A stretch of 64,000 bases of DNA from Oscillospiraceae bacterium. Its GTDB lineage: Bacteria > Bacillota > Clostridia > Oscillospirales > CAG-272. The translations under genes were made by a program, and so were the position numbers. Positions 4,823 through 23,667 of this stretch are shown here, piece by piece (position 1 is the first letter of the stretch; the number at the start of each line of letters is the position of its first letter). The notes under the pieces are model-generated. The model saw nothing but the letters and a program-made list of their open reading frames with translations, had not been told where the DNA came from and ran no database searches. The stretch lies in assembly GCA_015063685.1 (NCBI GenBank), contig SVTR01000004.1, positions 3,826 to 67,825 of the forward strand, read 5' to 3'.

Positions 4823-4834
4823 AGGAGTCCTCCT

Positions 4835-8375: not shown

Positions 8376-9020
8376 TTAAAAATACATGACGTTGTCAAGG
8401 GCGAGGGACAGTTTAGCGCTGTCACCGTGGCCGGGGTAAATGGTCAGCCTGCCCTCCAAGGTGCGGAGCAGACCCAGGGATCGAAACAGGGTGTCACGAC
8501 TGCCGCCCCAAAGATCCCAACGGCCGATGTTATCGGCAAACAGGGTGTCTCCTGTGACCAGGATGCGGGCGTTGCCCGTGGGTTCCACACAGAGGTAGCA
8601 AACCGATCCGGGGGAATGGCCGGGGGTGTGGATCACCTTGACCTTACCGCCGCCCAAGGGGATCTCGTCTCCGTCCCTGAGGAGAACGTCGGCGGGGGCG
8701 TAGACCCTGTTCTGACCGAAAAAGAAGGTAAATCCGTTCTTTTCGCCATCGGTGAGCATAGGCGCGTCGCCCTCGTGGATGTAGACCTTGAGGTCAATAC
8801 CCTCTGCCTTTGCGGAGGCGCGCAAGGTATCTACGGACAGGATGTGGTCAAAATGACCGTGAGTGAGCAGAATGCCCATGGGAGTCAGGTTTTCCTCCCG
8901 GAGCCGTTGTAAAATAGACGATGCTGCCGCGCTGGGGTCGATGATAAAGGCTTGTCCTCCTTGCCGCAGGATGTAGCAGTTGGAGGCAAAGGAGCCGGGA
9001 AACAGGTTGATGATCTCCAT
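8376..9020 (-). CDS. MBL-fold metallo-hydrolase (glyoxalase II-like)
   Basis: THGHFDH motif and 214 aa. RBS AAGGAGGG. Confidence 0.85.
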   Translation of the reverse strand: MEIINLFPGSFASNCYILRQGGQAFIIDPSAAASSILQRLREENLTPMGILLTHGHFDHILSVDTLRASAKAEGIDLKVYIHEGDAPMLTDGEKNGFTFFFGQNRVYAPADVLLRDGDEIPLGGGKVKVIHTPGHSPGSVCYLCVEPTGNARILVTGDTLFADNIGRWDLWGGSRDTLFRSLGLLRTLEGRLTIYPGHGDSAKLSLALDNVMYF

Positions 9021-9051
9021 AGCGTCCCTCCTTGCAAAAAATACACATTAT

Positions 9052-9080
9052 ATTATAACACAGATTTTACGTCTTGTCTA
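9052..9080 (-). promoter_or_regulatory. Sigma-A type promoter for the MBL-gltX-glnS-DUF1294 operon
   Basis: On the minus strand: TAGACA, 17 nt, TATAAT, with an extended TGT upstream of -10. Confidence 0.55.
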
Positions 9081-9127
9081 CAGTGAAGCAAAAAAAAGTT
9101 GGGCGGCGAAGAATTTTTTGAATAAGA

Positions 9128-9158
9128 AAGGGGCTGTCTCGTAACGAGACAGCCCCTT
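9128..9158 (-). terminator. Rho-independent terminator after the 766-aa lipoprotein gene
   Basis: AAGGGGCTGTCTCG-TAA-CGAGACAGCCCCTT, then a T-rich stretch on the minus strand. Confidence 0.65.
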
Positions 9159-9167
9159 GGGAATGCT

Positions 9168-11429
9168 TTATTCAGTATCAACGTTACCGTTGCCCTCAGC
9201 GGGAGGCAGGGTCACGGCTTCCTTTTCGTCCAGATAGAACTGAGCGTATACGGTATTAGCAGTCTTGAAGTCCTCAAACTTTGCGTATGCGCAGTTCTCA
9301 AAATCGTTGAACGCCAGGTTGTCGAAGTTTGCAGTAACGAATTCCTTACCTGCGGCGAGATAGTCCTCGTAAGAGCCGACCTTAGCCTTGGCGAAATTAG
9401 CGGTCATGTAGTAGGTGCTCTTCAGATTCTTCAGCTTGCCGGAGGTTGCGGTTGCTTCCAGGTTGAATACCAGGGGAACAACGGGAAGGTCTTCCATCAG
9501 CATATCCTCGGCAGCGTGAAGCAGAGCGGTCTTGGAGGCCAGATAGTTCTTGGCATCGGTGGATACGTTGTACTCGTCGTAAACGGCGGTGACGGTATCG
9601 TACATAGCCTTTTCAAGAGCTGCGTTCTGCTCGGTGCTTTCGAACTGGTTGAAGTAAGTGGTGGCCAGTACGCCGCTGGGAGAGTTGAACTTGTCGTAGT
9701 ACTGCAGGAAGTATACGGCTTCCATCAGGTTGTTGTACTTCTCAGAGTCGTAGCCGGTGATGTGAGGAGTCAGCTGATAGTTAGAGGTATCAGACATGTC
9801 CATGGCCTTGCCGGAGAAGGGCTTGGCGAAGGGAGACAGCATGGAATAGGGATCAGCGGAGTAAGCAACGCTATCAAAGATGATGGCTTCGAAGCTGCCA
9901 CTTGCCAGATCCTGATTATACAGGTTATCGCAGATATCCTTGGGCGTCTCGCCGGTGTACTTGTAGTAGTCGTTGTTGGTGATGGTGCCGCGGGGATTCA
10001 GGGTAACCTTGAAGCCGAGAGCGGTCCAAGCCTCGGCTACCTTGGTAGCGATCAGCTCGTGAACCTCATCGTATGCTGCATAGGTCAGAGAGAAGGAGTA
10101 CTTGCCGGCCTTGATGCCTGCCTCGCTGAGGAGAGCGGCTGCGGCGATGGGGTCGGTCTTGAGGGAGTCGTAAGCAGAAGAAGCCGCATCGCGGAAGGAG
10201 GTCTTCTTGCTGTTGCTGTCAAACACACCGGTGGGGACATAGCCGGTAGCGGCCTGCGCGTACACGATAGCCTCAGCCAGAGCTTGACGGTCAATAGCCA
10301 TGGAGAGCGCCTGTCTGACCTTTGCATTGGCAAACAGAGCGGAGCCCTCATCAGAGCCGTCCTTGATCATGGCTTTCTGATTGAAGTAAATGGCGTTGGT
10401 GGACAGGGAGGTTTCGGCAACCTTCACGTCCTTGGTCAGAGCATTGTCACCGCTGCGCAGAGACAGGGGAACGTCGCTGACGTACAGAACCACGCCGGCT
10501 TCGTAAGCGGCAGCCAGCTGATCGTCGGTCAGAGAGCAGTCCACGCAGATTCTGTAAGGAGTAACGGACTTGAACAGGCTGACGTCCTCTTCGTTTTCAC
10601 GATAGTAGTATACGTTACGCTCCAGGATGAAGTCGGTGACCTTCTGACTGGAGAAGCTACCGCCGATGGTCAGCTCACCGTCATCGTTGTACTTGGGCTC
10701 GCCATTTTCGTCAACTTCAATGTAAGTAGGATCCTCGTATTTGACGGTGACATCGCTGATCCAGTTGATACGACCCAGCTTGAAGGGACCGCTGCACACC
10801 ATGGTGCCGGGCTTCTTTGCCCAGTCGTCAGACTTGGAAACGATATCGTCACGCAGAGGAGCCAAAGCAAGGCTCGTCAGGTTCAGAAGGAACTGGTTGT
10901 AGTTGACCTTACCTTCGAACTGGATCTCCAGAAGCTGCTCCTCGGAGGGATAGATAGCCACGTCGTCAATGGAGGCATCGCCTTCCTTGGCGGCACGGGC
11001 ATTCTTGATATCGAACAGAAGAGACGCGGCTTCCTGGTCGGCGTCAACCTCAAGGAGACGCTTCCAAGCGAAAACGATGTCGTTTGCGGACACGGCAGTA
11101 CCGTCAGACCAGTGAGTGTCCTTCAGACGGAGATACATCTTGTACTCGCCGGCGCTTTCGTTTTCCTCGGTCCAGTATTCCTTGACAAGGGACTTCTGTA
11201 CCTTGCCGTTCTTATCTAACGTAAACAGGGTGTCGAACATCAGGCCGACAACCTTGGCCAAAGCTTCATTCTTGTACGCCTTGGCAGGGTCGAGGTCATA
11301 AACGTTATCAGTCAGGTACACGGTGATGTACTGGCCCTTGTAATCCTCGTCCTCGTTCTTGCTACAACCAATAAAGGTGGTCAGCAGGGTGGCGGCGCAA
11401 AGAAGCAACGCTAAAATACGCTTCATCAT
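9168..11429 (-). CDS. ABC transporter substrate-binding lipoprotein (family 5, peptide/nickel type), unusually large, with no transporter genes adjacent
   Basis: Lipoprotein signal MMKRILALLLCAATLLTTFIGCS, with start at ATG 11429 after GAGGAGGA. Family-5 SBP-like sequence continues throughout. Confidence 0.8.
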   Translation of the reverse strand: MMKRILALLLCAATLLTTFIGCSKNEDEDYKGQYITVYLTDNVYDLDPAKAYKNEALAKVVGLMFDTLFTLDKNGKVQKSLVKEYWTEENESAGEYKMYLRLKDTHWSDGTAVSANDIVFAWKRLLEVDADQEAASLLFDIKNARAAKEGDASIDDVAIYPSEEQLLEIQFEGKVNYNQFLLNLTSLALAPLRDDIVSKSDDWAKKPGTMVCSGPFKLGRINWISDVTVKYEDPTYIEVDENGEPKYNDDGELTIGGSFSSQKVTDFILERNVYYYRENEEDVSLFKSVTPYRICVDCSLTDDQLAAAYEAGVVLYVSDVPLSLRSGDNALTKDVKVAETSLSTNAIYFNQKAMIKDGSDEGSALFANAKVRQALSMAIDRQALAEAIVYAQAATGYVPTGVFDSNSKKTSFRDAASSAYDSLKTDPIAAAALLSEAGIKAGKYSFSLTYAAYDEVHELIATKVAEAWTALGFKVTLNPRGTITNNDYYKYTGETPKDICDNLYNQDLASGSFEAIIFDSVAYSADPYSMLSPFAKPFSGKAMDMSDTSNYQLTPHITGYDSEKYNNLMEAVYFLQYYDKFNSPSGVLATTYFNQFESTEQNAALEKAMYDTVTAVYDEYNVSTDAKNYLASKTALLHAAEDMLMEDLPVVPLVFNLEATATSGKLKNLKSTYYMTANFAKAKVGSYEDYLAAGKEFVTANFDNLAFNDFENCAYAKFEDFKTANTVYAQFYLDEKEAVTLPPAEGNGNVDTE

Positions 11430-11741
11430 GGTGTGATCAATCCTCCTCGAGTATTTGAACGGGCGCATCTACAGACACTAACCCATCCTATTTTTTATCT
11501 CCTACCTATTATATCATACAATCCCTTTTTTATCAATAAGATAATGAATATGTTTTTTAGTTTCGGACGGTTGCACAACTTCAAAGAGGAAAAACTGTGC
11601 AATTTGCATACGGATTTTGGGGATTTTCGGAGAAGAATTTTGTATAGAGGGAATCCGAATGCGGGAAAATAGAGACGGATGTGCTCTTGACCGTGAAAAT
11701 GCGGGTACCAAAGGGCAGATAGGGCGAAAAAGGGGGAGCGT

Positions 11742-12623
11742 ATGGAGAAAGCTTTGAGAGGTAACTACAGCAGAACAGACCTTGCCTGTGAGAGCCGAGG
11801 ACCTGCCGATACCTGCGAGGAGACGGTGGTTTATCCCGTGCCCGGCGAAGAAGGGATCAACGTGCAGCGCTGCCTGGATGCTGACGGAGCACGTTACACA
11901 ACCTTTTTCTGCGGGCGGATGACCCTTATGGGGGAGGCCATGATCTCGGCCTTTGGAAAGCTTTTGGGCAATGAGATGGTCAAGATGGCCGAGGGGATGA
12001 TCGGCGGCCCTCTCGGGGGGCGTACCCGGGTGCTGGTGGCAGGGCTGGGCAATCCCGATATGACCGCGGACGCCATCGGCCCGGGGACGGTACGGCGCCT
12101 GACCGCCACCCGTCACCTGAAGATCTACGATGAGGGTATGTACCAAGCCTTAGGCTGTTGTGAGCTGGCTGCCATGTCTCCCGGGGTTTTGGGTCAAACG
12201 GGGATCGAGTCGGGGGAGCTGGTACGGGGGGCGGTGACCCACGTAAAGCCCCACTTGCTGGTGGCGGTGGATGCCTTGGCGGCGCGGAGCTGTGACCGTC
12301 TGGCCGCCACCGTGCAGCTATCTGACCGAGGCATATCTCCGGGGGCCGGGGTGGGAAATTTCCGTCTGCCCATGGATCACAAAACCATGGGATGTCCCGT
12401 TCTCGGGGTGGGTGTGCCCACGGTGGTGGACTCCGCTACCCTGATATATGACGCACTGATCCAAGGGGGCATGAAAGCGCCCTTTCCTGAAGGGCTGACG
12501 GCGGTTTTGGAGAACGGGCGAAGCTTTGTGGTGTCCCCGAAGGATAGCGACTGCATTACCGAGATCACCTGCCGCCTGCTGGCCAAAGCCATTGACCATG
12601 CCTTCGGGGTGGGGGAATTGTAG
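11742..12623 (+). CDS. gpr: Germination protease GPR (spore endopeptidase)
   Basis: RTDLACE, GLGNPDMTADAIGP, VAVDALAA and LSDRGISPGAGVGN motifs. Lies adjacent to spoIIP, as in many Clostridia. Confidence 0.9.
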   Translation: MEKALRGNYSRTDLACESRGPADTCEETVVYPVPGEEGINVQRCLDADGARYTTFFCGRMTLMGEAMISAFGKLLGNEMVKMAEGMIGGPLGGRTRVLVAGLGNPDMTADAIGPGTVRRLTATRHLKIYDEGMYQALGCCELAAMSPGVLGQTGIESGELVRGAVTHVKPHLLVAVDALAARSCDRLAATVQLSDRGISPGAGVGNFRLPMDHKTMGCPVLGVGVPTVVDSATLIYDALIQGGMKAPFPEGLTAVLENGRSFVVSPKDSDCITEITCRLLAKAIDHAFGVGEL

Positions 12624-12783
12624 GGCATCTCTAAAAACTCATCGCACAACGTTATGGCGGTGCTTTTTTTGGCATACGTCACAAAATTCTTTTGTGTAGG
12701 GTCAACTATGCGTGCAGATTTTGGTTTAGTCTGACGAAAAAATCCCTCGCATCTTGCCGCACGCTGAGTATGCAGAGATGCCC
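12623..12783 (+). mobile_element. MITE-like 160-bp element (family B), copy 1
   Basis: Imperfect terminal inverted repeats GGGCATCTCTAAAAACTCATCGCAC and GCACGCTGAGTATGCAGAGATGCCC. TGTA is duplicated on both flanks (12619-12622 and 12784-12787). The element starts on the last base of the gpr stop codon. Confidence 0.7.
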
Positions 12784-12861
12784 TGTAGCATGAAACGGGC
12801 GGGACGGGCATATGCTTTGATAAAAGGGCATCTTTGAGCCAAGAAAAAGGAGCGTGTTCCC

Positions 12862-14181
12862 ATGAAAAAGAAAACCTCTCCGCCGAGGGCATTGCCGCCC
12901 CCGAAGGGCAAACTTGAGGATTGCGAGATCATCACCTCGGAGGATGCTCTCAAATACAAATCCTGTGAAATTCCCATAGCTGATCCGCAGACGTCGGGGA
13001 AGGCCGAATCTCAAAGCGCACGGAAGACCCAAAAGGGAAGCCGTAGCGCTTGGATCTCCTGCGGATGTATGATCTTTGGGCTGGTGCTTCTGCTGTTTCC
13101 CTTCGTGGGACGGGTCATATCCTCAGCCGACGGCGCGTTGACGTGGCAGGCTATGGGGGAAAAGGCCATGCTCGGATTGCTGTCCTACGGTCTGCCGCCT
13201 GTCAATGCCCCCTTTTTTGAGTCCTTGGGTAGTGAATCCGAAACCATCGGCTTTGAGGAAGCAACGGCAACCGATATACCCGGTGAGACGGATACCTTCG
13301 CAGAGGAAGAGACCGTCTCGGGGGATGAGACCCAAACGAACATACCCACCACCGCAGAAACTACTGCCGAGAAAGCCACCGAGGGAGCCTCGGAGGAGAC
13401 CCCGGAATCAGAAGGGCAAAGCATACCCATCGTGACGATGGATATGAGTGAAAAAGAGAAGGGGGCGGCGTATATCGTCGGGGACGAGGCCTGTGGTCCC
13501 CCGGAGGTTCCGTTAGAAAACGTGACGTTCCCCGAAGGGACGGCGGTGCTGCTCATCCACAGTCATCCCTACGAAGCCTACGGTGACGGAGGTGACGAGG
13601 CGTGGTATCGTGATGACGGCTGGGCGGTGGAGATTCCGGAGGAGGGCGGCTACCCTTCCGAGGGTGTGACGGCGCTGGGAAAAGACCTTGCCTTGCTGCT
13701 TCGCTTGCGAGGGATAGAGGTGGTTCACTGTGTTCTGCCTGCCGATGGCGTGCCGTCCCACATGGATACCTACGAAAAGACCCGGGAGGCGGTGGAACAA
13801 CTGCTGACAGAGCACCCTCGGGTAGGGCTGGTCATTGATCTGCGGCGGGGGGCAGAGCGCCTGTCCGACGGTAGCCTTTTGCGCACTCGGGGACGCTATC
13901 ACGGGCAGACCACGGCACAGCTGCGCTTGCTTGTGGATGGCTCCCGGAGAGCGACGGATGACACGCGGGATCTTGCCGCGGCCGTCACTCTGCGGCGATG
14001 GTTGTACCTTGAAGAACCTACCTTGAGCCGTCCTGTGTATCTGCGACAGGGTGAGGGTCTGACAACCGACACGTCGGTGGTGATGCTGACCCTGGAGCTC
14101 GGCACGGCAGGGAATACCTACGAGGAAGCCAATGCCCTGTTGATCCCCCTGGCCGACGCCCTGGCGCGGATGATCGGTTAA
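12862..14181 (+). CDS. spoIIP: Stage II sporulation protein P
   Basis: N-terminal TM segment, acidic T/E-rich linker, and a SpoIIP-like domain (LLIHSHPYEAY, VIDLRRG, LTLELGTAGNTYEEA). RBS AAGGAG. Confidence 0.8.
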   Translation: MKKKTSPPRALPPPKGKLEDCEIITSEDALKYKSCEIPIADPQTSGKAESQSARKTQKGSRSAWISCGCMIFGLVLLLFPFVGRVISSADGALTWQAMGEKAMLGLLSYGLPPVNAPFFESLGSESETIGFEEATATDIPGETDTFAEEETVSGDETQTNIPTTAETTAEKATEGASEETPESEGQSIPIVTMDMSEKEKGAAYIVGDEACGPPEVPLENVTFPEGTAVLLIHSHPYEAYGDGGDEAWYRDDGWAVEIPEEGGYPSEGVTALGKDLALLLRLRGIEVVHCVLPADGVPSHMDTYEKTREAVEQLLTEHPRVGLVIDLRRGAERLSDGSLLRTRGRYHGQTTAQLRLLVDGSRRATDDTRDLAAAVTLRRWLYLEEPTLSRPVYLRQGEGLTTDTSVVMLTLELGTAGNTYEEANALLIPLADALARMIG

Positions 14182-14222
14182 TGGCCGTAGCAGATGATTT
14201 AGACTATAAGCATATTAAAACG

Positions 14223-14262
14223 CACCCGCTCCGAGAAATCTCGGGGCGGGTGTGGTATTTTA
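14223..14262 (+). terminator. Rho-independent terminator after spoIIP
   Basis: CACCCGC..CCGAG-AAAT-CTCGG..GCGGGTG followed by GTATTTTAT. Confidence 0.6.
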
Positions 14263-14293
14263 TGCGGTTGCAGAGGGGGGCAGATAAATTGTT

Positions 14294-14452
14294 GGGCATC
14301 TCTAAATACTCAGCGTGCGGCGAGATGCGAGGGATTCTTTCGTCAGACTAAAAAAATCTGCGCGCATAGTCGTCCCTATGCGAAAGAATTTTGTGACGTA
14401 TGACGGAAAAAGCACCGTCATATCGTCGTGCGATGAGTTTTTAGAGATGCCC
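14294..14452 (-). mobile_element. MITE-like 160-bp element (family B), copy 2, inverted, with no target duplication
   Basis: Same termini as copies 1 and 3 but in reverse orientation. The flanks are TGTT on the left and CATA on the right, so no TSD. It abuts the accessory cassette. Confidence 0.7.
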
Positions 14453-14458
14453 CATATT

Positions 14459-14863
14459 TTATAGTATCCAATGCCATATTTCCAATACAATGATCATGAT
14501 ATTTATGAAAACAAACATTACGGACGAATATCCGTGTTTTCTCCAAATTTTGAGGCAACAATAAAAGCCAAACAAATAGTAGATCTCAAAAAATATGGCA
14601 AAATATTTTAAGTTGGTATGGGCGATCCATAAAGCGATCAGTTGGAGCACCGACAGGTATCCGATTCTTCCGAGGCTTTTGATGGGGGACGTGCCGATAT
14701 ACGACGGCGTATCGTCCGTCACCGTTTGCCGATAATCCTTCCAAAGACTTACTGACAATCTTTTCGCTAAGCGTTCGACGCTACTGCCAAAGGAACTGCC
14801 GTGATGGGGGATGGATGTGTTTCCGTTAGAAAAATCATGATGTAATGGATCGTTGGTCATCAT
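14459..14863 (-). CDS. Small membrane protein (134 aa), third gene of the MutS-like cassette
   Basis: About 60 soluble aa followed by three predicted TM helices. It shares the motif W-(R/K)-x-(K/R)-(H/F)-GYS with the 100-aa neighbour. It starts 12 nt after the neighbour's stop, and the local sequence is AT-richer. Confidence 0.6.
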   Translation of the reverse strand: MMTNDPLHHDFSNGNTSIPHHGSSFGSSVERLAKRLSVSLWKDYRQTVTDDTPSYIGTSPIKSLGRIGYLSVLQLIALWIAHTNLKYFAIFFEIYYLFGFYCCLKIWRKHGYSSVMFVFINIMIIVLEIWHWIL

Positions 14864-14875
14864 TTCACCTCACAG

Positions 14876-15178
14876 CTAAAAAATTCTTTTGATACCCAAT
14901 GCCATGAAACATAGGATGATCACCGAAATGGTCGGCGGCCATGCGGAATAACCGAAGCGTTTGTATACCCTGAGCCATGCGATCATTTGAAAAACGATCA
15001 TGCCTGCCACCGGCATGAGATATGCCAACCAAACCCAAGGCAGAGGCAACAGGCAGTAAGCAACCGCTTGGAGGCATATAAAAAGATACAGCCGCAGCAG
15101 AAGTCCCCTAGGTATGCCGAGATAGCAGGGATAGCGTATTTGATTCAGCTGTCGCCAGTTTGAAATATATCGAAGCAT
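14876..15178 (-). CDS. Small membrane protein (100 aa), second gene of the MutS-like cassette
   Basis: Three predicted TM helices. AWLRVYKRFGYSAWP resembles KIWRKHGYSSVM in the 134-aa protein. It starts 8 nt after the MutS-like stop, with a G-rich RBS. Confidence 0.6.
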   Translation of the reverse strand: MLRYISNWRQLNQIRYPCYLGIPRGLLLRLYLFICLQAVAYCLLPLPWVWLAYLMPVAGMIVFQMIAWLRVYKRFGYSAWPPTISVIILCFMALGIKRIF

Positions 15179-15186
15179 AACCCCCC

Positions 15187-16689
15187 CTATATGATCCCGT
15201 ATTGCTTGGCGATCCTTTCGGCACAGCTGGTACCCTGCGGGTCGTCCTGTGTCACCCGATACGTTCCAAACTCTACGGTCAAGGAGGATATATCGGGACG
15301 ATTAAACAAATTCCTCGCCAAGCTGTGTAGGTGGGTAGAAAACAGCACCTTGGCTCCTGCGTCCATCAGACGGTCAATATACTGCTCCGCGATCACCGCT
15401 GCCTCCTCAGCACCCGTACTGCTAAAAGTCTCATCCATAAAGATCATGGCGTTGGGAATGAGAGCCTTTTGGATCTCGGCAAGGCTTTGGCATTCCTCTT
15501 CAAGCCGACCCATTTTATATTGACCGGCATTGGCACTTGGAAAATGTAGCTTGATTTGTGAAAGCGGCGTGACCTCGGCTTTGCGGGCAGGAATAGGCAA
15601 GCCCAATCCGGTCAACAAATAGCAAATCGCTACCGCGGTGGTGTAAATGCTCTTGCCGCCGCTGTTGGGGCCTGTCAGAATGATGGCCTTGTGGGACGAT
15701 GCAAGGATATAATCGTTGGGGGTGATTTGATCGAAGGGTATATTTTGCGAAAGCAACAGATGGTACATCCCGTAGATTTCAGTATGTCCATCGGCTTTCA
15801 GGGCGGGATAGCAATAGTAGCCGCCCACGTTGGTCAAGACTTGCATGAGACGGTAGGCGGCCAAGATAAAATCAATCTCATTTTTTAGGTTTAGAAGCTC
15901 GTATGCGCATTGCTTGAGTGCCCGTAGACCGCTTTTACGGGCGACCTTGACGGAATCGGTCATCACCTTGTCCATGGCGTTGTTGATCGCCGTGCGGAAT
16001 TGCTGGTTTTCTTCAAAGGTCAGCTTTTTGGAAAGGTGGGTCATGGGCGCGATGCAGGTATAGTCACTCCCCGAAAAGTCCAACCGCAGGAGCTTGTCGA
16101 TCCATTCGCCCGATTTGTAATATTCAGAATTAAATGATACGACCCCTGCTTCAATGGGGCGTAGCTGTGCATCGAGATTGACCCCAACCGTGATGCTCTT
16201 GACGCTCTCAATGGTGACAGATATTTCACGGAGACCTTGAGAAAGCTTTAAAAATTCCTCGGATTCCGAAAGGAGAGTCAGGATGCTTTTAAAACTCGCC
16301 AGTGCTTCACAACTCACATGAACCTTGTGTAACCGCTGCTTTAATTCTTGAATAAGCTCCGTGTAGAAAGATAAAATGACCAGATCTCGCACCTGATGAT
16401 CGACCTCAGATCCTTGTATGTTCTCCTTCCCACTTTGGCAGAGATCCTCCAAAATGTCCAGCTTTTCCTTGAAAAACAGCAGTATTTCCACAAGCGGGGG
16501 TGTTGTGTCAAGTGCCTTGAATAACTGATGTCGGTAAGAGATGACCTCCACACCATCGGTAAAATAAGAGTCGATGCTCTTGGGGAAGAAGCGCATGACA
16601 TCGAGACGATCCACGACCTCTTTGTCTATGGTAATGCTTTTCCTCGGGTTGTGAGCGGGATATAGAAAGCTGTAATCTTCAAAATACAT
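15187..16689 (-). CDS. MutS-domain-V-like ABC ATPase (MutS-related protein lacking mismatch-binding and Smr/nuclease domains)
   Basis: Walker A TGPNSGGKS, Walker B IFMDETFSSTG and FSTHLH, matching the order of MutS ATPase motifs. The N-terminal ~300 aa are helical. RBS AAGGAG. Confidence 0.8.
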   Translation of the reverse strand: MYFEDYSFLYPAHNPRKSITIDKEVVDRLDVMRFFPKSIDSYFTDGVEVISYRHQLFKALDTTPPLVEILLFFKEKLDILEDLCQSGKENIQGSEVDHQVRDLVILSFYTELIQELKQRLHKVHVSCEALASFKSILTLLSESEEFLKLSQGLREISVTIESVKSITVGVNLDAQLRPIEAGVVSFNSEYYKSGEWIDKLLRLDFSGSDYTCIAPMTHLSKKLTFEENQQFRTAINNAMDKVMTDSVKVARKSGLRALKQCAYELLNLKNEIDFILAAYRLMQVLTNVGGYYCYPALKADGHTEIYGMYHLLLSQNIPFDQITPNDYILASSHKAIILTGPNSGGKSIYTTAVAICYLLTGLGLPIPARKAEVTPLSQIKLHFPSANAGQYKMGRLEEECQSLAEIQKALIPNAMIFMDETFSSTGAEEAAVIAEQYIDRLMDAGAKVLFSTHLHSLARNLFNRPDISSLTVEFGTYRVTQDDPQGTSCAERIAKQYGII

Positions 16690-16716
16690 CTTGGAAGCTC
16701 CTTTTGAGGCGTTTTT

Positions 16717-16789
16717 GGGGAGGCCATACAGGGCTCCCCTACAATGTTTCAGAATAAATTTCTACCGTAGGGGCGCGCATCGCGTGTCC
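16717..16789. repeat. Degenerate REP-like hairpin pair
   Basis: GGGGAGGCCATACAGGGCTCCCCTAC (16717-16742) and GTAGGGGCGCGCATCGCGTGTCC (16767-16789). Confidence 0.5.
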
Positions 16790-16849
16790 GTTTGTTTGGG
16801 AGACGACAGATGCGCAAACGGGAGGAGTTTACTCCTCCCGCAGATAAAT

Positions 16850-19444
16850 TTATTCTTCCTTCTTTTTCTCCATGTCCATCATACCGAGCTGATCGCCCAG
16901 AATGACCAGCTTGCCCTCGTCATCCTTCACGTAGTAGTAGCTGGTGCCGCCGTGGACGTTGGGCTGTTTCTCATTGAGGTACTTGTAGTGCCGCTCCATG
17001 CCGTCCTCTATGGGCATATACCCCTCGCCCGTGCCCTCATAGGACACCAGATCGTAGATGCGAATATCCTCGTAGGAGGTGACATAGGTGATGATGCGTA
17101 CAAGACCGATACCGGGGGCGAAGAAGTAGTCCTTATCAGTGTTCTGATAGGTGATGCCGGGACTCTCGTTCTGGCTGGTACGGGCGCGGATGCGGAGACA
17201 GTTTTCAAAGGTGCCGAGGGTGGTGGTCACCGTCTCTCCGCTGTATACGCGGCCGTAGCCGATAAATTCCTTGCCCTGATCCCAGCGTGCGGGGCGGTGG
17301 AACTGAAATTCCTCGTCACGATCTGCATACTCCAGCCACGCGGGATCCCACAAAGCACCCAAGCCGTTTTGCAGGATGTCGTAGATGAAGTTGATGAGGG
17401 TGGCAAAGCAACCGTTGCGGGTGTTCTTCCACTCAAATTCATAGGTGCGATCGCCGCTGGAGATCGTGAACTTTTCCCCAACTTGGGTAACGGGACAGTA
17501 GGTCAAGAAATTCCACACGCCTTCCTGTTTCGCGTTGGGATTTGCATCTGTATCACTTTGGAAAATGCGGTTCATGACGTTGCGGGATACCTCCGCCACC
17601 TTCTTCTCCCAAGGAGTCTGCGCCAAGGCCACGGCGCGGTCATGGTAGGCAGACACGTCCAACGCCACGTGGTCGCTATAGTAATTGTTACGGGCGTACA
17701 GGAGGTTGTCTCGCCATGAGTTCTCGTCGAAGGGCGTACCGAGAACGTAGTAGCGGTAGGAGAGATAGGCCTTGTTGTCCACCGTAGCCGTGACGGTGGT
17801 ACGGAAGGTGTGCTCATATTCCAGCTCCTCGGAGGTGTAGCTCCAGAAGTTGCCCTCGCAGAGGGGGATCCACCCGTGACCGCCGCAAACCTCGTACTCG
17901 CGCAGGGTGATCTTGCCGAACACCTCACCGTCTTGCTCCTTCCATCCGAAGGCCACCAGGCCGATATTGGGCTTATACCACGCCACGAAAACGGGGGCGG
18001 GGTATCTATCCCGGATGGGATTATAGGTGTGCATCTCTACACAGCCGTGGAAATCTCCGCAGGCAGTGGACACCGTGGCGTCGGTGGACACACAGGTGAG
18101 GGTGATCTTGCCCTCACTGTCGGTCACGCTGTCACCGACCTTCATGGTCTCGTCCAGAATCAGACCGTCCGCACGGGAGGATATCCAGAACGCGGAACCT
18201 GCCCACTTAACGTATGACGGAACATCCATGTAGCGCCGATCAAAGCCCGGCTGTTGACTAAAATACAGCTTGTTTCCGCGAATGATCAACTCCTCGGCGG
18301 TACATTCAAGCAGAAATTTGCTTCTGTCGGACAGCAGCTCTCCCACGCCGTCCATGCCCTCCAGGGTGGACCTGGTGAGTGCGATATACAGGGGATTCTC
18401 CGCGCCTGTCTCCAGCGCCAAGGCAAACTCCTTGCGGGCGTTGTCATAATCTTTGGCCTGAAAATAATCGTAGCCCAGCCAGTAGTGGTGGTAGGCCACC
18501 TCCCCGGGGATGTCGTACTTCAAAAGCTCGGGGATGATGGTGTTGTAAACGTAGTCCACCTTCTCCTTGCCCGAATATTTGTCCTTGCCAAAGCCGATGC
18601 ACAGGGCCAGCACCTCTTTGTTATTGCCCTTGATGGCCGCTTCCTTGAGCTTGGCCCGCATCTCGTCGGTCTTGCCGTCGGACAGATACCAGTAGCCCAG
18701 CTTGAGTACGTCGGCCATGGCGTAAAATTTCTTTTCGGAGTCGGGGAGGCTTTCTACCTGGGACAGCACGTCCTTGTAGTCCTCCTCAAACCCCACCTTG
18801 CTGTTCTTCAGCCGCCACTCCTTGAATTCCTCTACACGGCGCATGACGGCCTCTACCAAAGTTTCATGCTTGTTGTTCTTATCCACGTAACCTAATTCCT
18901 TTCTGATCTGGTCTCGCCCCGCGGACAAGCGGCTCTTGACCGTGCCCTCGGCGAGGCTCATTTTCGTTGCGATGTCGCTCACCGAAAGCCCCTCAAAGTA
19001 ATGAAGACGGATGACCGTACCGATCTTTTCTGACAGCTTTTTCACGCAGTCGCGGAGCAGCTCGGTTTCCAGCTTGTCATCATAGTAGCCCGTGACGTCC
19101 TCGGCCTTCTCCGCCAGATAGTTCTCTACCTCGTCGAAGGGGATGTAGTCCTTGTATCGCTTGGCCAGATTGATGGCGCGGTACTTGGCGATACGGCACA
19201 CCCAATGGCCGAACTTGGCGGCATCCTTCAAGGTGTCCAGGCGTTGCCAGGCGCAGAGAAAGGCATCCTGCACCGCGTCCTCGGCGGTGTGGAGATTTCT
19301 CGTTACGGTTTTGGCCATGAGCAGGGCGGCCTTGCGGTGACGGATCACCAATTCCTCAAAGGCGGCCTCGTCCCGCATAAGGGTCAAGGCGACCAGGGTC
19401 TCATCGGTTTGCTCACGGTAGCTGATGGCATGGTTTTGGTTCAT
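16850..19444 (-). CDS. ECF-like sigma-70 factor fused to a ~670-aa C-terminal domain (TPR-like helical part plus a beta-rich part)
   Basis: Start at MNQNH (ATG 19444, RBS AAGAGGAAAAAG) inside listed ORF 16850..19549. Region 2 AEDAVQDAFLCAWQ and region 4 LSVSDIATKMSLAEGTVKSRLSAGRDQIRKEL are followed by a long extension with no obvious TM segment. Confidence 0.8.
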   Translation of the reverse strand: MNQNHAISYREQTDETLVALTLMRDEAAFEELVIRHRKAALLMAKTVTRNLHTAEDAVQDAFLCAWQRLDTLKDAAKFGHWVCRIAKYRAINLAKRYKDYIPFDEVENYLAEKAEDVTGYYDDKLETELLRDCVKKLSEKIGTVIRLHYFEGLSVSDIATKMSLAEGTVKSRLSAGRDQIRKELGYVDKNNKHETLVEAVMRRVEEFKEWRLKNSKVGFEEDYKDVLSQVESLPDSEKKFYAMADVLKLGYWYLSDGKTDEMRAKLKEAAIKGNNKEVLALCIGFGKDKYSGKEKVDYVYNTIIPELLKYDIPGEVAYHHYWLGYDYFQAKDYDNARKEFALALETGAENPLYIALTRSTLEGMDGVGELLSDRSKFLLECTAEELIIRGNKLYFSQQPGFDRRYMDVPSYVKWAGSAFWISSRADGLILDETMKVGDSVTDSEGKITLTCVSTDATVSTACGDFHGCVEMHTYNPIRDRYPAPVFVAWYKPNIGLVAFGWKEQDGEVFGKITLREYEVCGGHGWIPLCEGNFWSYTSEELEYEHTFRTTVTATVDNKAYLSYRYYVLGTPFDENSWRDNLLYARNNYYSDHVALDVSAYHDRAVALAQTPWEKKVAEVSRNVMNRIFQSDTDANPNAKQEGVWNFLTYCPVTQVGEKFTISSGDRTYEFEWKNTRNGCFATLINFIYDILQNGLGALWDPAWLEYADRDEEFQFHRPARWDQGKEFIGYGRVYSGETVTTTLGTFENCLRIRARTSQNESPGITYQNTDKDYFFAPGIGLVRIITYVTSYEDIRIYDLVSYEGTGEGYMPIEDGMERHYKYLNEKQPNVHGGTSYYYVKDDEGKLVILGDQLGMMDMEKKKEE

Positions 19445-19620
19445 CTTTTTCCTCTTTTCGTGAATGTTCGGTGTTGCTTGTTTTCCTATAGAATGATCGA
19501 CCCATGCTGCGCTGGGGGCGCGGTATGCACACTCCCGTGACACCGCCATCGCAGGTGGCTCTGTCTATATGACAACCGCGCAAGGGAAAAGGTTCGGTTT
19601 GTGGAAAAATTTTGTAAAGG

Positions 19621-20430
19621 GGATTGTTTGTCGGCCAAATCGGGGATGCTTAACTTATGCGAGCCGCATACCCGATGGGCGGTTGGTCAGCTAAATTGTT
19701 GTTTATATTCTTCTCAACTTTTCTCTCCACGGCGAGAGAAAAGTTGCAAAAGAAGCGCCGCTTAGTGCAGAACCTACGGTTCTCCCTAAGAACCCAACTC
19801 CCTCGTGACGCACGCAGACCACAGAGGTGGTCTGCTATTGCGTGTTTCTTGTCAGCCACCGGCGGTGGCTCGCCCCCACGGCGGAGCGCCTCGGGGCTCA
19901 TCGAAAAGCCGATTGACATATTTCTGTTGGTCGAACAAGGGAATGTTCAGGGTCAAGTGGCGAAGCTACAGTTCTGATGGCGAATGGACAAATGTTGTTG
20001 TTTTTCAATCAAACGATTATCTCTCGCCGTGAGAACTATGGATTCGATACTATTTTTCAATATTGAATTTCTTCAAACTCACTAACGCTTTCTGAACGGC
20101 ACGGTATGAGCCTCAAGGCGCTCCGCCGCAGAGGCGGGTTATCGGCGTTGGCTGACACGTGACACGCGATAGCCGCTCCACTCCCCATTGGGGAGCGGCG
20201 TGCGTCACGAGGGAGTTGGGTTCTTAGGGAGAACCGTAGGTTCTGCACTAAGCGGCGTTCTTTTGGAACTTTTCTGCCGCCGTGGGCAGAAAAGTGGAAA
20301 GGATGCTAAACAACAATTTACCTGCTTAACTGCCCATCGCGGGATGCGGTACGCACAGGATGCACTACCCCGAGCGATGGCCGCGGCACGGCCGCTAAGC
20401 AACAATTTATCTGCCTAATCACCCACTATG
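19621..20430. repeat. Nested palindromic non-coding repeat locus A (partial 88-nt-type units flanking long-armed element copy 1)
   Basis: Forward AAATTGTTGTTT at 19693 and a degenerate GGATTGTTTG at 19621. Reverse AAACAACAATTT at 20308 and AAGCAACAATTT at 20397. No credible ORF. Confidence 0.8.
19693..20319 (+). mobile_element. Long-armed palindromic element, copy 1 (L arm ~215 bp, core ~190 bp, R arm ~220 bp)
   Basis: A perfect 60-nt inverted repeat, 19756-19815 against 20198-20257. The core (about 19906-20096) reads the same as in the copy at 53.3 kb. Mobility is inferred only from the copy number. Confidence 0.6.
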
Positions 20431-20448
20431 GGGGACGACCATACAATG

Positions 20449-20478
20449 AAAGCCCGCAGGGTCACACCTTCGGGCTTT
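20449..20478 (-). terminator. Hairpin after the cytidylate-kinase-like gene
   Basis: AAAGCCCG-loop-CGGGCTTT, 15 nt after the stop. The T-tract is weak. Confidence 0.45.
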
Positions 20479-20492
20479 GATTTGATATTCAG

Positions 20493-21107
20493 TTAGTTCT
20501 TCTGCGCCGTATCCTGGATGGCCTTCATGATCAGCTCGGTGCAAAGCTCCTCGCCCAAAAGTCCGCTGTCCAGCGCCATGTGGTAGTTGGTGCAGACGCC
20601 CCACTCACGGTCGGTGTGGAAGCGATAGTAATTGCGACGGCGGTTGTCCTTGTCGCGGAGCCGCTGCTCGGGGGTTTTTTCAGTTTGACCGTAGTTCTTC
20701 AGGATATGGGCCACACGATGCTCCATGTCCGCGTGGATGAACACGTGAAGACAGTCGGCGCGGTCGCGGAGGATGAAATCGGCGCAACGACCCACGATGA
20801 CACAGGGCTCCTTGTCGGCCAGATCCTCAATGACGTGGGTCTGTGCCTCGTATAGCCGCTGATAAACAGAGGGATAACCCAGACTGCCCGCGGTGCTCAT
20901 GGCGAGCTGGAAGAGAAAGCTGTTGGAGTGAGAGGCGTATTCCTCATGCTCCTTGATGAAGTCTTCGGAAAGGCCGCTGGACTTGGCCACCTCGGTGATG
21001 AGCTTGTTGTCATAAAAGGCGATGCCCAATCGGTCGGCAACCAGCTTGGCGATGGTGTGTCCGCCGCTGGCAAACTCACGGCTGATGGTAATGATGCGTT
21101 TTTTCAT
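20493..21107 (-). CDS. Cytidylate kinase-like family protein (P-loop NTPase-like)
   Basis: MKKRIITISREFASGGHTIAKLVADRLG is typical of the cytidylate-kinase-like family. Start at ATG 21107 after GGAG. Confidence 0.8.
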   Translation of the reverse strand: MKKRIITISREFASGGHTIAKLVADRLGIAFYDNKLITEVAKSSGLSEDFIKEHEEYASHSNSFLFQLAMSTAGSLGYPSVYQRLYEAQTHVIEDLADKEPCVIVGRCADFILRDRADCLHVFIHADMEHRVAHILKNYGQTEKTPEQRLRDKDNRRRNYYRFHTDREWGVCTNYHMALDSGLLGEELCTELIMKAIQDTAQKN

Positions 21108-21288
21108 AATAATCTCCATCCCGCCGCCATCGGCGGCGCATATATACTTTGAAATTCGACCGTGTCGCTTTTGCGACAAAATGGATGGGGGGCCCACTTT
21201 AGGGAGAATTGTGCGTGAAACGGCAAATTTCGATTTTGGATCGTCGAACGTTCACGCGGCTCCCTCCTGTTTTCACTTGCATAAGAAT

Positions 21289-21317
21289 ATTATACCATAA
21301 AAAATTCGATTTGACAA
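21289..21317 (-). promoter_or_regulatory. Sigma-A type promoter, giving a ~180-nt leader for the cytidylate-kinase-like gene
   Basis: On the minus strand: TTGTCA, 17 nt, TATAAT, with an upstream TGG. Confidence 0.55.
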
Positions 21318-21341
21318 GGGGGATTTTGGAGATTGACAAAA

Positions 21342-21501
21342 GGGCATCTCTAAAAACTCATCGCACGCCGATATGCGGTGCTTTTTCCGTCATACGTCGC
21401 AAAATTCTTTCGCATAGGGCCAACTATGCGTGCAGATTTTTGTTTAGTCTGACGAAAAAATCCCTCGCATCTCGCCGCACGCTGAGTATTTAGAGATGCC
21501 C
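21342..21501 (+). mobile_element. MITE-like 160-bp element (family B), copy 3
   Basis: Termini GGGCATCTCTAAAAACTCATCGCAC and GCACGCTGAGTATTTAGAGATGCCC. AAAA occurs on both flanks (21338-21341 and 21502-21505). Confidence 0.7.
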
Positions 21502-21568
21502 AAAACTTTATCAAATCCGGGAGATGAATAGTTGGTTCCGATTTTTTATAAATCCTCACGCGAAATTC

Positions 21569-21606
21569 AAAAAAGTGGGGAAGGCTTTCAGTGAAAAGCC
21601 TTCCCC
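21569..21606 (-). terminator. Rho-independent terminator after the EF-G paralog
   Basis: GGGGAAGGCTTT-loop-AAAGCCTTCCCC, followed by ACTTTTTTG on the minus strand. Confidence 0.65.
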
Positions 21607-21618
21607 GCGGTCATCATA

Positions 21619-23667
21619 TTACTGCTGCAGAGCGGCAATGACCTTGCTTGCCACGTTAGCGGGCACCTGGTCGTAGCCGGTCTCGGCAAACTCGAACCAT
21701 CCGCGGCCCTGGGACATAGCGCGCAGGGAGATGGGATAGTCAGCGATCTCGGACTTGGGCACCTGCACCTGAATGGTGGTGTAGCCCACCTTGCCCTCGC
21801 AAGGATTCATGCCCATAACGCTGCCGCGGCGCTTGTTCATGTCACCCATGACGTCACCCACGAGAGCATCGGGAACGGTGACCTCCAGATCGCCAATGGG
21901 CTCCAGAAGCACGGGAGCGGACTGCTCGAGGCACTTCTTGTAAGCCAGGTTAGCGGCGGTCTTGAAGGACATTTCATCAGAGTCAACGGCGTGGAAGCTA
22001 CCGTCGTACAGCTCGGCCTTCAGGCGAACCAGCGGGAAGCCTACGGCACCCTTCAGCATAGCATCCTCCAGACCCTTCTGGACGGCGGGGATGAAGTTCT
22101 TGGGCACGGAGCCGCCAACGGTGGCGTCAACGAAGGTCAGACCCTCGTCCTCACCGGGAGCGAAGCGGATCTTGACGTGACCGTACTGGCCGGAACCGCC
22201 GTTCTGCTTCTTGTGCTTGCCTTCAACGTCGCACTTCTTGGTGATGGTCTCACGGTAAGCGATCTTGGGCTCGTCCAGCTTGATGCTGGTGCCGAAGCGG
22301 GACTTCAGCTTAGCTGCCAGCACGGACAGGTGCATGTCACCGATACCGTAGATCAGCATCTGCTTGGTCTCGGGGTTGTTTTCGTAGCGCAGGGTGAGAT
22401 CCTCCTCCAGCATCTTGGCGATGGCCTGGGAGATCTTGGACTCGTCCTTGGCGGTTTCGGGGGTGATACCCTTGCACATGTAGGGCGTTGCGTACTTGGT
22501 AGGAGCGTACACCGTGTCGCCGCTGATGCGGAGGGTGTCGTTGGTGTTGGTATTGGTCAGCTTTGCGATCATGCCGAGATCACCGCATGCCAGCTCCTCA
22601 ACCTCAACCTGCTCCTTGCCCTTCATGATATAGATGTGAGCCATCTTTTCAGTAGTGCCGGTGCGGACGTTGCGGAGGGCCATATCACGGCGGACAACGC
22701 CGGTCATGACCTTGAAGAAGGACATCTTGCCCACGAAGGGGTCAGCGATGGTCTTGTAAACGAAGATGGCGGGATCGCCTTCCACGTCGATGGCCACGGG
22801 CTTGCCGCCCAGATCCTTCTCCACCTTACGGGCGGTAGGACGGGGGAAGGAGCCTGCGATGGCATCCAGCATGGCAACAACGCCCCACATATTGGTGGCG
22901 GAGCCGCAGTATACGGGCACGATGGTACCCTGAATAATACCGTTGTGGAGGGCTTCCTCGGCCTCTTCCTTGGTGAAGGATTCACCCTCGAAGTACTTCT
23001 CCATCAGATCATCGGAGGTGCCGGCCAGAGCCTCGTTGAGGGCGTCCTTATAGTCGTGAGCGGTCTGCTCCCAGTTGATCTTCATAGCAACGCCGGATCT
23101 CTTGCCCTTGTCGTCGTACTTGAAGGCCTGCATATCAATGAGGTCGATCATGGTGACGTCCTTGCCGGTTTCCACGGGGATGAACACGGGGCAGATGGAC
23201 ACGCCGAAGGTGGCGTGGATCTGGTGGAATACACGGGCAAACTTGGTCTCGGGGTCGTCGCACTTATTGATAAAGAAAGCCTTGGGAATACCGGCGGCAC
23301 AAGCAGCGTCCCACGCAAGCTCGGTACCAACCTCAACGCCTGCCTTACCGTCAACCGTAATGACGGCAGCATCAGCCACGCGGACAGCCTGCTTGACTTC
23401 GCCTGCGAAATCCAGGAAGCCGGGGGTATCCAGCACGTTGATCTTGGTATCCTTCCAAGTCATGTAAGCGGGGGTAGCGGACAGCGTAAAGCCTCTTGCC
23501 TTCTCCTCTGCGTCGTAGTCGCAGACGGTGTTACCCTGGGTAACGTTACCGAGACGGTCGGTACCGCCGGTGGCAAACAGCATTGCCTCAGCCAGAGAGG
23601 TCTTGCCGCTGCCGCCATGACCCAGGAGGGCCAGGTTACGAATTTGCTTGGTGTTGAAATCAGCCAT
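21619..23667 (-). CDS. Elongation factor G family GTPase (EF-G paralog)
   Basis: G1 GHGGSGKTS, G3 DTPG, G4 NKCD, and EF-G domains II-V by length (682 aa). Confidence 0.9.
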   Translation of the reverse strand: MADFNTKQIRNLALLGHGGSGKTSLAEAMLFATGGTDRLGNVTQGNTVCDYDAEEKARGFTLSATPAYMTWKDTKINVLDTPGFLDFAGEVKQAVRVADAAVITVDGKAGVEVGTELAWDAACAAGIPKAFFINKCDDPETKFARVFHQIHATFGVSICPVFIPVETGKDVTMIDLIDMQAFKYDDKGKRSGVAMKINWEQTAHDYKDALNEALAGTSDDLMEKYFEGESFTKEEAEEALHNGIIQGTIVPVYCGSATNMWGVVAMLDAIAGSFPRPTARKVEKDLGGKPVAIDVEGDPAIFVYKTIADPFVGKMSFFKVMTGVVRRDMALRNVRTGTTEKMAHIYIMKGKEQVEVEELACGDLGMIAKLTNTNTNDTLRISGDTVYAPTKYATPYMCKGITPETAKDESKISQAIAKMLEEDLTLRYENNPETKQMLIYGIGDMHLSVLAAKLKSRFGTSIKLDEPKIAYRETITKKCDVEGKHKKQNGGSGQYGHVKIRFAPGEDEGLTFVDATVGGSVPKNFIPAVQKGLEDAMLKGAVGFPLVRLKAELYDGSFHAVDSDEMSFKTAANLAYKKCLEQSAPVLLEPIGDLEVTVPDALVGDVMGDMNKRRGSVMGMNPCEGKVGYTTIQVQVPKSEIADYPISLRAMSQGRGWFEFAETGYDQVPANVASKVIAALQQ

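Follow-up and report, generated by a model that had tools for sequence, protein, structure and literature searches.

The window, a stretch of 64,000 nucleotides from contig SVTR01000004.1 of an Oscillospiraceae bacterium (assembly GCA_015063685.1), carries on its minus strand a cassette of three genes, which encode a MutS-like ATPase of 500 amino acids (aa) and two small membrane proteins, here designated s1 and s2. A preliminary description of this DNA, made from the sequence alone, had interpreted the cassette as an acquired module for conflict or defense. The conserved pairing of such an ATPase with a protein of three transmembrane (3-TM) helices appears to be previously undescribed, as judged from PADLOC, Pfam, NCBIfam, and the literature searched, and the role of the cassette is probably not DNA repair. 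The three genes are the following:

15187..16689, minus strand: gene of the MutS-core ATPase (500-aa open reading frame, ORF)
14876..15178, minus strand: s1, small membrane protein gene (100-aa ORF with ribosome binding site, RBS)
14459..14863, minus strand: s2, small membrane protein gene (134-aa ORF with RBS)

The ORF coordinates agree with the preliminary description of three closely spaced minus-strand genes, separated by gaps of 8 nt (ATPase/s1) and 12 nt (s1/s2). Shine-Dalgarno-like sequences precede the genes of the ATPase, s1, and s2 (AAAGGAG, GGGGGG, and GAGGTG, respectively). The cassette is AT-richer than its surroundings, as had been stated, and this deviation is genuine though moderate: the GC content was 0.41–0.49 compared to 0.541 for the whole 64-kb window, and the GC content at third codon positions (GC3) was 0.51–0.59 compared to 0.665 ± 0.074 for 35 long ORFs of the window. 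All three genes are under purifying selection, far above the expectation for chance ORFs. Specifically, the dN/dS values determined against orthologues at 57–86% identity were 0.07–0.17 for the ATPase, 0.09–0.19 for s1, and 0.08–0.30 for s2. When the three proteins were scanned with PADLOC, PHROGs, Pfam, and NCBIfam, MutS_V was the sole domain detected.

The ATPase, its membrane partner, and its relatives

Loci with related genes were gathered from encoding contigs, one genome per GTDB species, metagenomes, and viral contigs (L numbers below), and a hidden Markov model (HMM) of the s1 family was scanned against the six-frame ORFs of all of them. Genes in these loci were called by simple ORF rules, and the contexts are mainly contigs of metagenome-assembled genomes (MAGs). 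About 500 full-length relatives of the ATPase were retrieved by protein search; a single-protein scan of metagenomes for relatives gave no match, and an alignment-based metagenome scan reached only relatives of at most 33% identity.

At every s1-type locus (at least 25 loci from about 17 deep lineages), an s1-like 3-TM ORF was found adjacent to the ATPase gene and on the same strand. Deep sister lineages keep this neighbor though the identity of their ATPases is ~27–36%. The s1 gene lies downstream of the ATPase gene in the window, L001, L097, L183, L006–L008, L181/L182, L002, L098, and L184, as well as in L110, and upstream of it in L003, L010 (Paenibacillus allorhizosphaerae), L025, L087, L088, L090, L099–L105, L107, and L109. 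L111 encodes a probable 4-TM version of the partner. Among the hosts of the s1 type are many gut Clostridia and Paenibacillus. Thus, the ATPase and a membrane protein are strongly co-conserved across genomes, a point for which the preliminary description had proposed a check. The same HMM revealed no partner in ~73 loci of a related core-gene type (the main type, see below), in 24 environmental single-gene relatives, or in tandem pairs of MutS-like genes. In a neighbor-joining tree, a crude distance tree without support values, all s1-type ATPases fell into one clade with the main type nested inside. Because of this nesting, the partnership of ATPase and s1 seems to be ancestral, with the partner apparently lost in the main type.

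In the ATPase, Pfam MutS_V (PF00488) matched residues 336–473 with 63.7 bits (gathering cutoff 30.2), and the MutS ATPase motifs GPNSGGKS, IFMDETFSSTG, and FSTHLH are present in the order described before. Since the Walker A residue K346, the Walker B residues D419 and E420, and residues T452 and H453 are invariant among 21–24 family members, the protein should be active and is predicted to be catalytically competent. An AlphaFold2 (AF2) model based on 24 family members (pLDDT 78, pTM 0.77) contains long helices at residues 47–161, a beta hairpin at 165–187, helices at 225–287, and an alpha/beta ATPase domain at 300–500. These parts correspond to a lever (~47–161 and 225–287), a hairpin at the position of the clamp, and an ABC-type domain V. 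In a Foldseek search, the whole chain aligned to MutS2 of B. subtilis and Thermus and to MutS of E. coli and human (E values of 3e-18 to 1e-15), and the sequence profile reached solved structures via the C-terminal half only. As modeled, the 500-aa protein comprises only the "core" of MutS, namely lever, clamp, and domain V, and it ends ~10 residues past the latter.

The ATPase belongs to the MutS superfamily and is not MutS1, MutS2, or KamC. Pfam matched neither MutS_I nor MutS_II, which sets it apart from MutS1, nor Smr, which sets it apart from MutS2. The absence of mismatch-binding, Smr, and nuclease domains had been noted earlier, and only MutS_V was found by Pfam and NCBIfam. The NCBIfam scores were far below the cutoffs for TIGR01070 (51 vs. 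642), NF003810 (70 vs. 480), and the MutS2 equivalog TIGR01069 (81.6 bits vs. 400). The hairpin at the clamp position, KSITVGVNLDAQLRPxEAGVVS...ILRLDF, is the most conserved stretch of the family and is not basic. In the signature-like GRSTF motif of MutS, "ST" is deleted throughout the family; GR--LEEEC remains, and its Cys is invariant.

Hydropathy analysis gave three peaks each for s1 and s2, consistent with the three TM helices previously assigned to either protein. The s1 protein contains no acidic residues, and its AF2 model, which is of low confidence (pLDDT 59), places helices at residues 24–43, 47–75, and 82–99. Two motifs of s1 are conserved: RYPCYLxIPR at the N-terminus, which is predicted to be cytoplasmic, and W-L-R-x-Y-K-R-F-G-Y-S in the loop between TM2 and TM3. 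The s2 protein consists of a soluble N-terminal extension of ~45 aa and three TM helices, and its loop motif is WRKHGYS (YKRFGYS in s1). The preliminary description had recognized that the two proteins share a motif, but its formula W-(R/K)-x-(K/R)-(H/F)-GYS contains one position too many; the motif actually reads [WY]-[RK]-[KR]-[FH]-G-Y-S.

Pairwise BLASTP of s1 against s2 resulted in an E value of only 0.008. An HMM of s1-type proteins alone matched all five s2 orthologues at E values of 2e-4 to 4e-3 (5e-4 for s2 of the window), with noise above E = 1. The suggested paralogy of s1 and s2 is therefore supported at the profile level. The s2 protein is confined to the clade of the window, with orthologues in L001, L097, L183, L006–L008, and L181, and only 59 aa of it remain in the 46% subclade (seen in L002). 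When 1.84 billion representatives were searched exhaustively with a profile, only three further true s1 homologues and no fusion protein of s1 and MutS were found. As judged from these searches, the membrane partner forms a narrow family that diverges fast and is overlooked by standard annotation. The two proteins do not resemble holins (best match Phage_holin_3_6 at E = 1.9, no PHROG match, a C-terminus of 4 residues), and no similarity to transporter families was found other than a weak, sub-threshold match to DUF5684.

The main type, a MutS_V protein of ~540 aa from Oscillospirales and other Clostridia, is 30–34% identical to the window ATPase over its full length and shares with it the invariant motifs KSITVGVNLDAQLRP..EAGVVS, GRLxEEC, DETFSST, and STHLH. 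The main type is a conserved core gene in the order PHP phosphoesterase, MutS_V, AsnC/Lrp, aminotransferase, and ribosomal protein L28, and unlike the window type it has no adjacent 3-TM gene. It was found as a conserved single-copy gene in many genomes (L009 and L012–L086; e.g., 1706–5882 in L086), where it is annotated as hypothetical or as "DNA mismatch repair protein MutS". Both types coexist in one MAG (L006 with L045 and L050). A C-terminal tail of the main type was considered as a substitute membrane anchor and rejected, as some s1-type proteins carry such a tail, too.

The tandem MutS-like pairs are homologous to the window family over the full length (HMM E values of 1e-45 to 1e-69, 21–30% identity), and the family HMM aligns their proteins from profile position ~6 onward, the N-terminal half included. 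Like the window ATPase, these proteins of ~500–520 aa have a domain-V-only annotation. In contrast to the single MutS-like gene of the window, each pair is made up of two paralogous neighbors; the stop codon of one gene overlaps the start codon of the next, an arrangement suggestive of heterodimers. The pairs have no s1-like partner, whereas the window gene has a membrane partner and no fluoride riboswitch. The tandem loci were likened to MutS4A/MutS4B, described as adjacent MutS-like genes by Lin, Nei, and Ma (2007; PMC2190696), on the basis of the published arrangement and not of reference sequences. On a metagenomic contig with both kinds of genes (L099), a tandem pair (2264–5355) and a pair of s1 and s1-type ATPase (7610–9644) share a stretch of 7.5 kb. 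The DNA between the two pairs contains a NUDIX gene, a c-di-AMP riboswitch (6088–6221, minus strand), and a PdaC/DUF3298 gene that overlaps the s1 start.

A fluoride riboswitch is located directly upstream of the tandem pair in L150 (2147–2206), and another heads an antiporter-USP-MutS-MutS operon on the Klebsiella pneumoniae IncFIB/HI1B plasmid NZ_CP017986.1 (L179, 1645–1705). The latter operon adjoins a P-type ATPase, crcB, gpmA, eno, and a DHHA2-domain gene, which is likely ppaC by comparison with the fluoride island of Enterobacter; the paper on that island does not cover MutS-like genes. The neighbors of the pair on an Alicyclobacillus plasmid (L180) are a Mn efflux pump and DUF190. Genes regulated by the crcB motif were listed to include mutS (Weinberg, 2010; PMC2864571).

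MutS2 (PDB 7qv3, 9a5o, 7vuf, 9kce) combines, like the ATPase, a lever, a small clamp, and domain V without a mismatch-binding domain, and its dimerization helices are conserved in the window protein. Foldseek matches to MutS2 had E values of 3e-18 to 5e-16 and a TM-score of ~0.5 on the 463-residue Thermus core. The PDB profile match spans positions 262–525, and by sequence the N-terminal half resembles no solved structure. Unlike MutS2, the window ATPase lacks KOW and Smr domains, has lost the "ST" of the signature, and has an obligate membrane partner. A further stand-alone MutS-like ATPase, KamC (~508 aa; lysine 5,6-aminomutase reactivase, NF052383), acts in a non-DNA role. Its model scored 64.8 bits over the ATPase domain of the window protein compared to a 300-bit cutoff, and kamDE or B12-enzyme neighbors were found at none of the examined loci.

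Regulators and genomic context

The cassette is preceded by a gene for a sigma factor fusion of the extracytoplasmic function (ECF) type, and together they form a four-gene block, which the preliminary description had overlooked. The additional features of this block are:

16850..19444 (ORF to 19549), minus strand: ECF-type sigma-70 fusion gene, identified by Pfam/NCBIfam and by orthologues
19566..19597, minus strand: candidate ECF-type promoter, CCGAACC-N17-TTGTCATATA, preceded by AAAATTTT, invariant in four genomes
16820..16839, minus strand: GC-rich hairpin GGGAGGAG-TAAA-CTCCTCCC, seen in the sequence, with a structure conserved in L001 and L097
16717..16739, minus strand: hairpin GGGGAGCC..GGCCTCCCC, just 5' of the ATPase RBS, seen in alignments
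14221..14254, both strands: 15-bp hairpin, likely a bidirectional terminator that ends the operon, from a terminator scan and the sequence

The ORF of the sigma fusion comprises 899 aa, with sigma regions 2 and 4 at ~60–220 followed by a C-terminal part of ~640 aa, in which no known domain was found. Translation probably starts at Met36 (position 19444). In L001, L097, and L183, the gene that directly precedes that of the ATPase encodes an orthologue of 862–863 aa, and the four-gene block is thus shared by a clade of 77–100% identity (window, L001, L097, and L183). Beyond the block, the flanks differ in every genome: spoIIP and gpr in the window, aconitase in L001, and three tRNAs followed by another sigma gene in L097. 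The genes upstream of the block also differ from genome to genome. The deviant composition and the changing flanks are consistent with the acquired islet of the preliminary description.

The promoter motif of the sigma gene is kept in the window, L001, L097, and L183 despite the divergent flanks and is unique in the 64-kb window; the 5' untranslated region of ~110 nt is conserved across the related genomes as well. This ECF-type promoter would drive the sigma fusion and, as we infer, the whole block. The sequence TGAAAC-N16-GTAT was considered as an ECF promoter of the ATPase gene itself and rejected, as it is not conserved in L001, L097, and L183. Directly 3' of the stop codon of the sigma fusion lies the GC-rich hairpin (16820–16839), with a weak or absent U-tract and compensatory changes in L001 and L097. 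The absence of a T-run is suggestive of read-through from the sigma fusion into the ATPase gene, by which the sigma fusion may drive the cassette.

The hairpin at 16717–16739 is part of a ~55-nt block that is near-identical in L001, and its counterpart in L097 forms a fully paired stem of 8 bp that shows compensatory changes. The spacer between the sigma fusion and the ATPase gene measures 160 nt, and a hairpin of the GTAGGGGAGGCC type occurs twice in L097. The hairpins between 16717 and 16839 could serve as an attenuator or stabilizer or could be similar to repetitive extragenic palindromic elements. At the other end of the operon, the strong hairpin at 14221–14254 separates the cassette from the convergent spoIIP gene and has T-runs on both strands.

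The gene upstream of the pair usually encodes an environment-responsive regulator, which is of different types in other lineages. An XRE-type helix-turn-helix (HTH) protein with TPR repeats (350–380 aa) is encoded directly upstream in the 46% subclade (L002/L098/L184), in the 70% subclade (L006–L008/L181), and in L103 and L104. These XRE-TPR proteins are homologous over the full length between lineages, and in L002, L098, and L184 the gene overlaps the start of the ATPase gene by 4 nt. The XRE-type protein upstream in L110 shares only the HTH domain, and the upstream regulator in L109 is of the AraC type. The regulator genes have a host-like GC3, and the ATPase/s1 pair shows an elevated AT content in the window, L001, L097, L006, L010, and L088, but not in L002, L003, and L087. 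Overall, the pair of ATPase and 3-TM protein looks like a constant core, with regulators that look locally recruited.

Further neighbors vary as well. In L088, the pair has a pyrophosphatase gene on one side and an Mrp antiporter operon on the other, and the s1 gene of L003 directly follows the RNase P RNA. Sporulation genes adjoin the pair in 3 of the ~17 lineages (gpr and spoIIP in the window, spoVAC in L002/L098, and yunB in L003). A link to sporulation was judged coincidental, since these neighbors are convergent or unlinked. A variable slot with defense-like genes was seen at 1337–4390 in L006, 317–4411 in L007, 158–4225 in L181, and 1187–4417 in L008; among these genes, DUF2971 is accompanied by two unknown genes. 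This slot beside the XRE-ATPase-s1-s2 block looks like a variable defense hotspot.

Candidate roles of the cassette

Our preferred explanation, held tentatively and with slightly less than even confidence, is that the cassette constitutes an accessory operon, linked to a regulator, for a complex of a MutS-fold ATPase docked at the membrane and is not a mismatch-repair gene. Within one large clade, a specific 3-TM protein accompanies the ATPase without exception. This association locates the action of the ATPase at the membrane and speaks against classical DNA repair, and the pair changes its genomic context together with the upstream regulator. According to this proposal, the ECF-type promoter of the sigma fusion gene would drive transcription of the block once the large C-terminal domain of the fusion senses a cue, and the XRE-TPR regulator would take the place of the sigma fusion in most relatives. 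The ATPase would dimerize via domain V, as MutS and MutS2 do, and would dock on a hetero-oligomer of s1 and s2 via the N-terminal PxYLxIPR and the loop [WY][RK][KR][FH]GYS, both predicted to be cytoplasmic. ATP would then drive the opening and closing of the lever and clamp arms at the inner face of the membrane. This clamp cycle might act on a ligand or be triggered by one; since the conserved clamp hairpin is not basic, duplex DNA is probably not this ligand. By analogy with the tandem pairs in fluoride-riboswitch operons, the likeliest role would be an inducible response to envelope or ion stress (or to conflict).

Several findings weigh against this explanation. The XRE-TPR proteins and the sigma fusion are non-homologous between lineages, with an hhalign probability of 0.1%, on which ground a common sensor domain of the two regulators was rejected. 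Moreover, XRE-TPR proteins are abundant in these genomes, and the linkage to a regulator could be partly incidental. The window holds no ECF-type promoter directly upstream of the ATPase gene, so that control by the sigma factor needs read-through of the hairpin. Rfam gave no match at E ≤ 10 in 16600–16900 and none at the gathering threshold in 11000–22000, and a fluoride or other riboswitch in the leader of the cassette was rejected as a candidate. Likewise, neither the fluoride riboswitch (RF01734) nor another Rfam element was detected in 17 other s1-type loci. The neighbors of the s1-type genes show no consistent ion or envelope theme except in L088, and the defense-like neighbors in the 70% subclade (see below) fit a role in phage defense equally well.

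It is conceivable, if on balance doubtful, that a MutS-fold ABC ATPase with dedicated 3-TM subunits constitutes an unrecognized membrane machine, either a sensor-plus-pore immune device or an ATP-gated channel or exporter, which would be ancestral to the partner-less core gene. If true as a defense system, it would represent a new class with a MutS-type sensor. If true as a stress or ion machine, it would tie MutS-fold ATPases to membrane physiology and help to explain the fluoride-resistance company of the relatives. To our knowledge, the orphan MutS paralogues catalogued between 2007 and 2012 (MutS3, MutS4, MutS5, and the "mutS" of the fluoride regulon) have no assigned function; solving the role of the window type would inform on these paralogues, the fluoride-regulon kin included. 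In any case, such genes should not be annotated as "DNA mismatch repair protein MutS".

Among the alternatives, we considered an anti-phage or abortive-infection module, in which the MutS-fold ATPase would sense a phage nucleic acid or protein and activate s1 and s2 to depolarize or permeabilize the membrane. The XRE or sigma regulator would keep the module silent until needed. We regard this alternative, its regulatory part included, as unlikely but deserving serious attention. ABC/SMC-type ATPases and small TM effectors are common components of defense systems. In RexA/RexB and in CBASS and retrons with TM effectors, the gene of a cytoplasmic NTPase or sensor lies beside small proteins with several TM helices, and an XRE-type regulator is often present. 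In four of the seven lineages examined, the cassette exceeds its flanks in AT content, with the strongest contrast in Paenibacillus (L010, GC3 of 0.34 vs. 0.68), and the context of the block differs among four close relatives. Within the 70% subclade, the position divergent from the XRE gene is occupied by one of three different defense-like genes, for a Metallophos-nSTAND protein (PADLOC PDC-S60, 2.5e-27), a weak-NACHT protein of 1355–1364 aa, or DUF2971 (PDC-S31, 1.2e-25), and a Rep gene lies nearby.

However, such defense-like neighbors were found in only one of ~17 lineages. The screen with PADLOC and Pfam of 115 other neighbors from ~20 s1-type loci revealed mainly generic HTH, ABC, and methyltransferase proteins and housekeeping functions, and the other loci (~15 lineages) lie amid housekeeping genes, for example beside RNase P RNA (L003) or tRNAs (L097). 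The location in a defense island, for which a check had been suggested, was thus indicated for the 70% subclade and not for the other lineages. A PADLOC analysis had been suggested, too: PADLOC-DB v2 matched none of the ATPase, s1, s2, and the sigma fusion (E ≤ 0.1), and six diverse family members gave P-loop-level noise only. The statement that no system of this composition has been described was corroborated, as none was found in PADLOC or in the literature searched, which contained no defense system of a MutS-like protein plus a membrane protein.

Mobile-element carriage was rejected as well: 50,697 phage and 72,556 plasmid records contained no full-length member of the family, and five weak loci were found in IMG/VR. 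The missing resemblance of s1 and s2 to holins and PHROGs and their conserved docking-type motifs also speak against effectors of this kind. Unlike in systems of the RexA/RexB type, s1 carries conserved cytoplasmic motifs, which suggest stable docking, and there is no similarity to PADLOC profiles. Finally, the sister group is a core gene, and the nearest relatives also include fluoride-riboswitch genes, which points at least as much to stress as to defense. With defense-like neighbors in a single subclade and no PADLOC match, the defense module proposed in the preliminary description is not established.

Less probable is a non-canonical ABC-like membrane machine, in which an ATPase dimer would provide the nucleotide-binding domains (NBDs) and a hetero-oligomer of s1 and s2 a small channel or transporter, gated or energized by the ATPase, for an ion or a small toxic solute. 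The ion-transport company of the tandem relatives makes such gating an attractive, if speculative, idea. Domain V of MutS is an ABC-class ATPase, and a pairing of small paralogous membrane proteins is typically seen in small channels and exporters. The loop motif of s1 and s2 resembles, by position only, the NBD-docking loops of ABC permeases. Tandem pairs under the control of fluoride riboswitches share operons with a cation:proton antiporter and have crcB, a P-type ATPase, a Mn efflux pump, and DUF190 as neighbors, and L088 abuts the Mrp antiporter operon. Against this alternative, s1 and s2 are unlike any transporter family apart from the weak DUF5684 match, the tandem pairs and the main type lack an s1-like partner, most s1-type neighborhoods show no transport theme, and a riboswitch is absent.

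We consider it improbable to a still higher degree that the ATPase takes part in a nucleic-acid transaction at the membrane, such as repair, recombination, segregation in sporulation, or ribosome rescue in the manner of MutS2, with s1 and s2 as mere anchors. The structural match to MutS2 and MutS is full-length and includes lever and clamp, the hosts are spore-forming, and sporulation genes adjoin the cassette in three contexts. Nevertheless, the ATPase contains no mismatch-binding, Smr, KOW, or nuclease domain, the hairpin at the clamp position is its most conserved part yet not basic, and the "ST" of the signature is deleted. The sporulation neighbors are convergent or unlinked, absent from most lineages, and at about chance level in Clostridia, and an accessory, compositionally deviant cassette argues against a core DNA function.

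That the adjacency is meaningless, the small ORFs being unrelated membrane genes or mis-called, is in effect refuted by the data on co-conservation. In favor of this alternative, neither small protein has a family annotation, and very few homologues of them could be detected in large databases. Against it, a partner adjoins every s1-type locus despite low ATPase identity and inverted gene order, dN/dS is 0.07–0.30, the RBSs are conserved, and the spacing is tight or overlapping.

Repeat elements around the four-gene block

Two kinds of repeats were observed near the block. An element of ~165 nt occurs three times in the window (12623–12783, 14283–14452, and 21342–21512), with 89–94% identity between the copies, and one copy begins 6 nt past the stop codon of s2. 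It has terminal inverted repeats of ~20 nt (GGGCATCTCTAAA...TTTAGAGATGCCC) and is strongly structured, with an RNA fold z-score of -8.2, and it resembles miniature inverted-repeat transposable elements. Rfam contains no family that matches this element; a related copy is present in L039.

The second kind is a non-coding element of ~750 nt at 19670–20411 with internal inverted repeats, whose arms of 68–82 nt are 78–91% complementary. A second copy with 91% identity lies 34 kb away at 53312–54069, partial copies lie at 49271–49807, and fragments were also found in another Oscillospiraceae MAG (L037). The element at 19670–20411 is located just upstream of the promoter of the sigma fusion, and the four-gene block is thus bracketed by two kinds of repeats.

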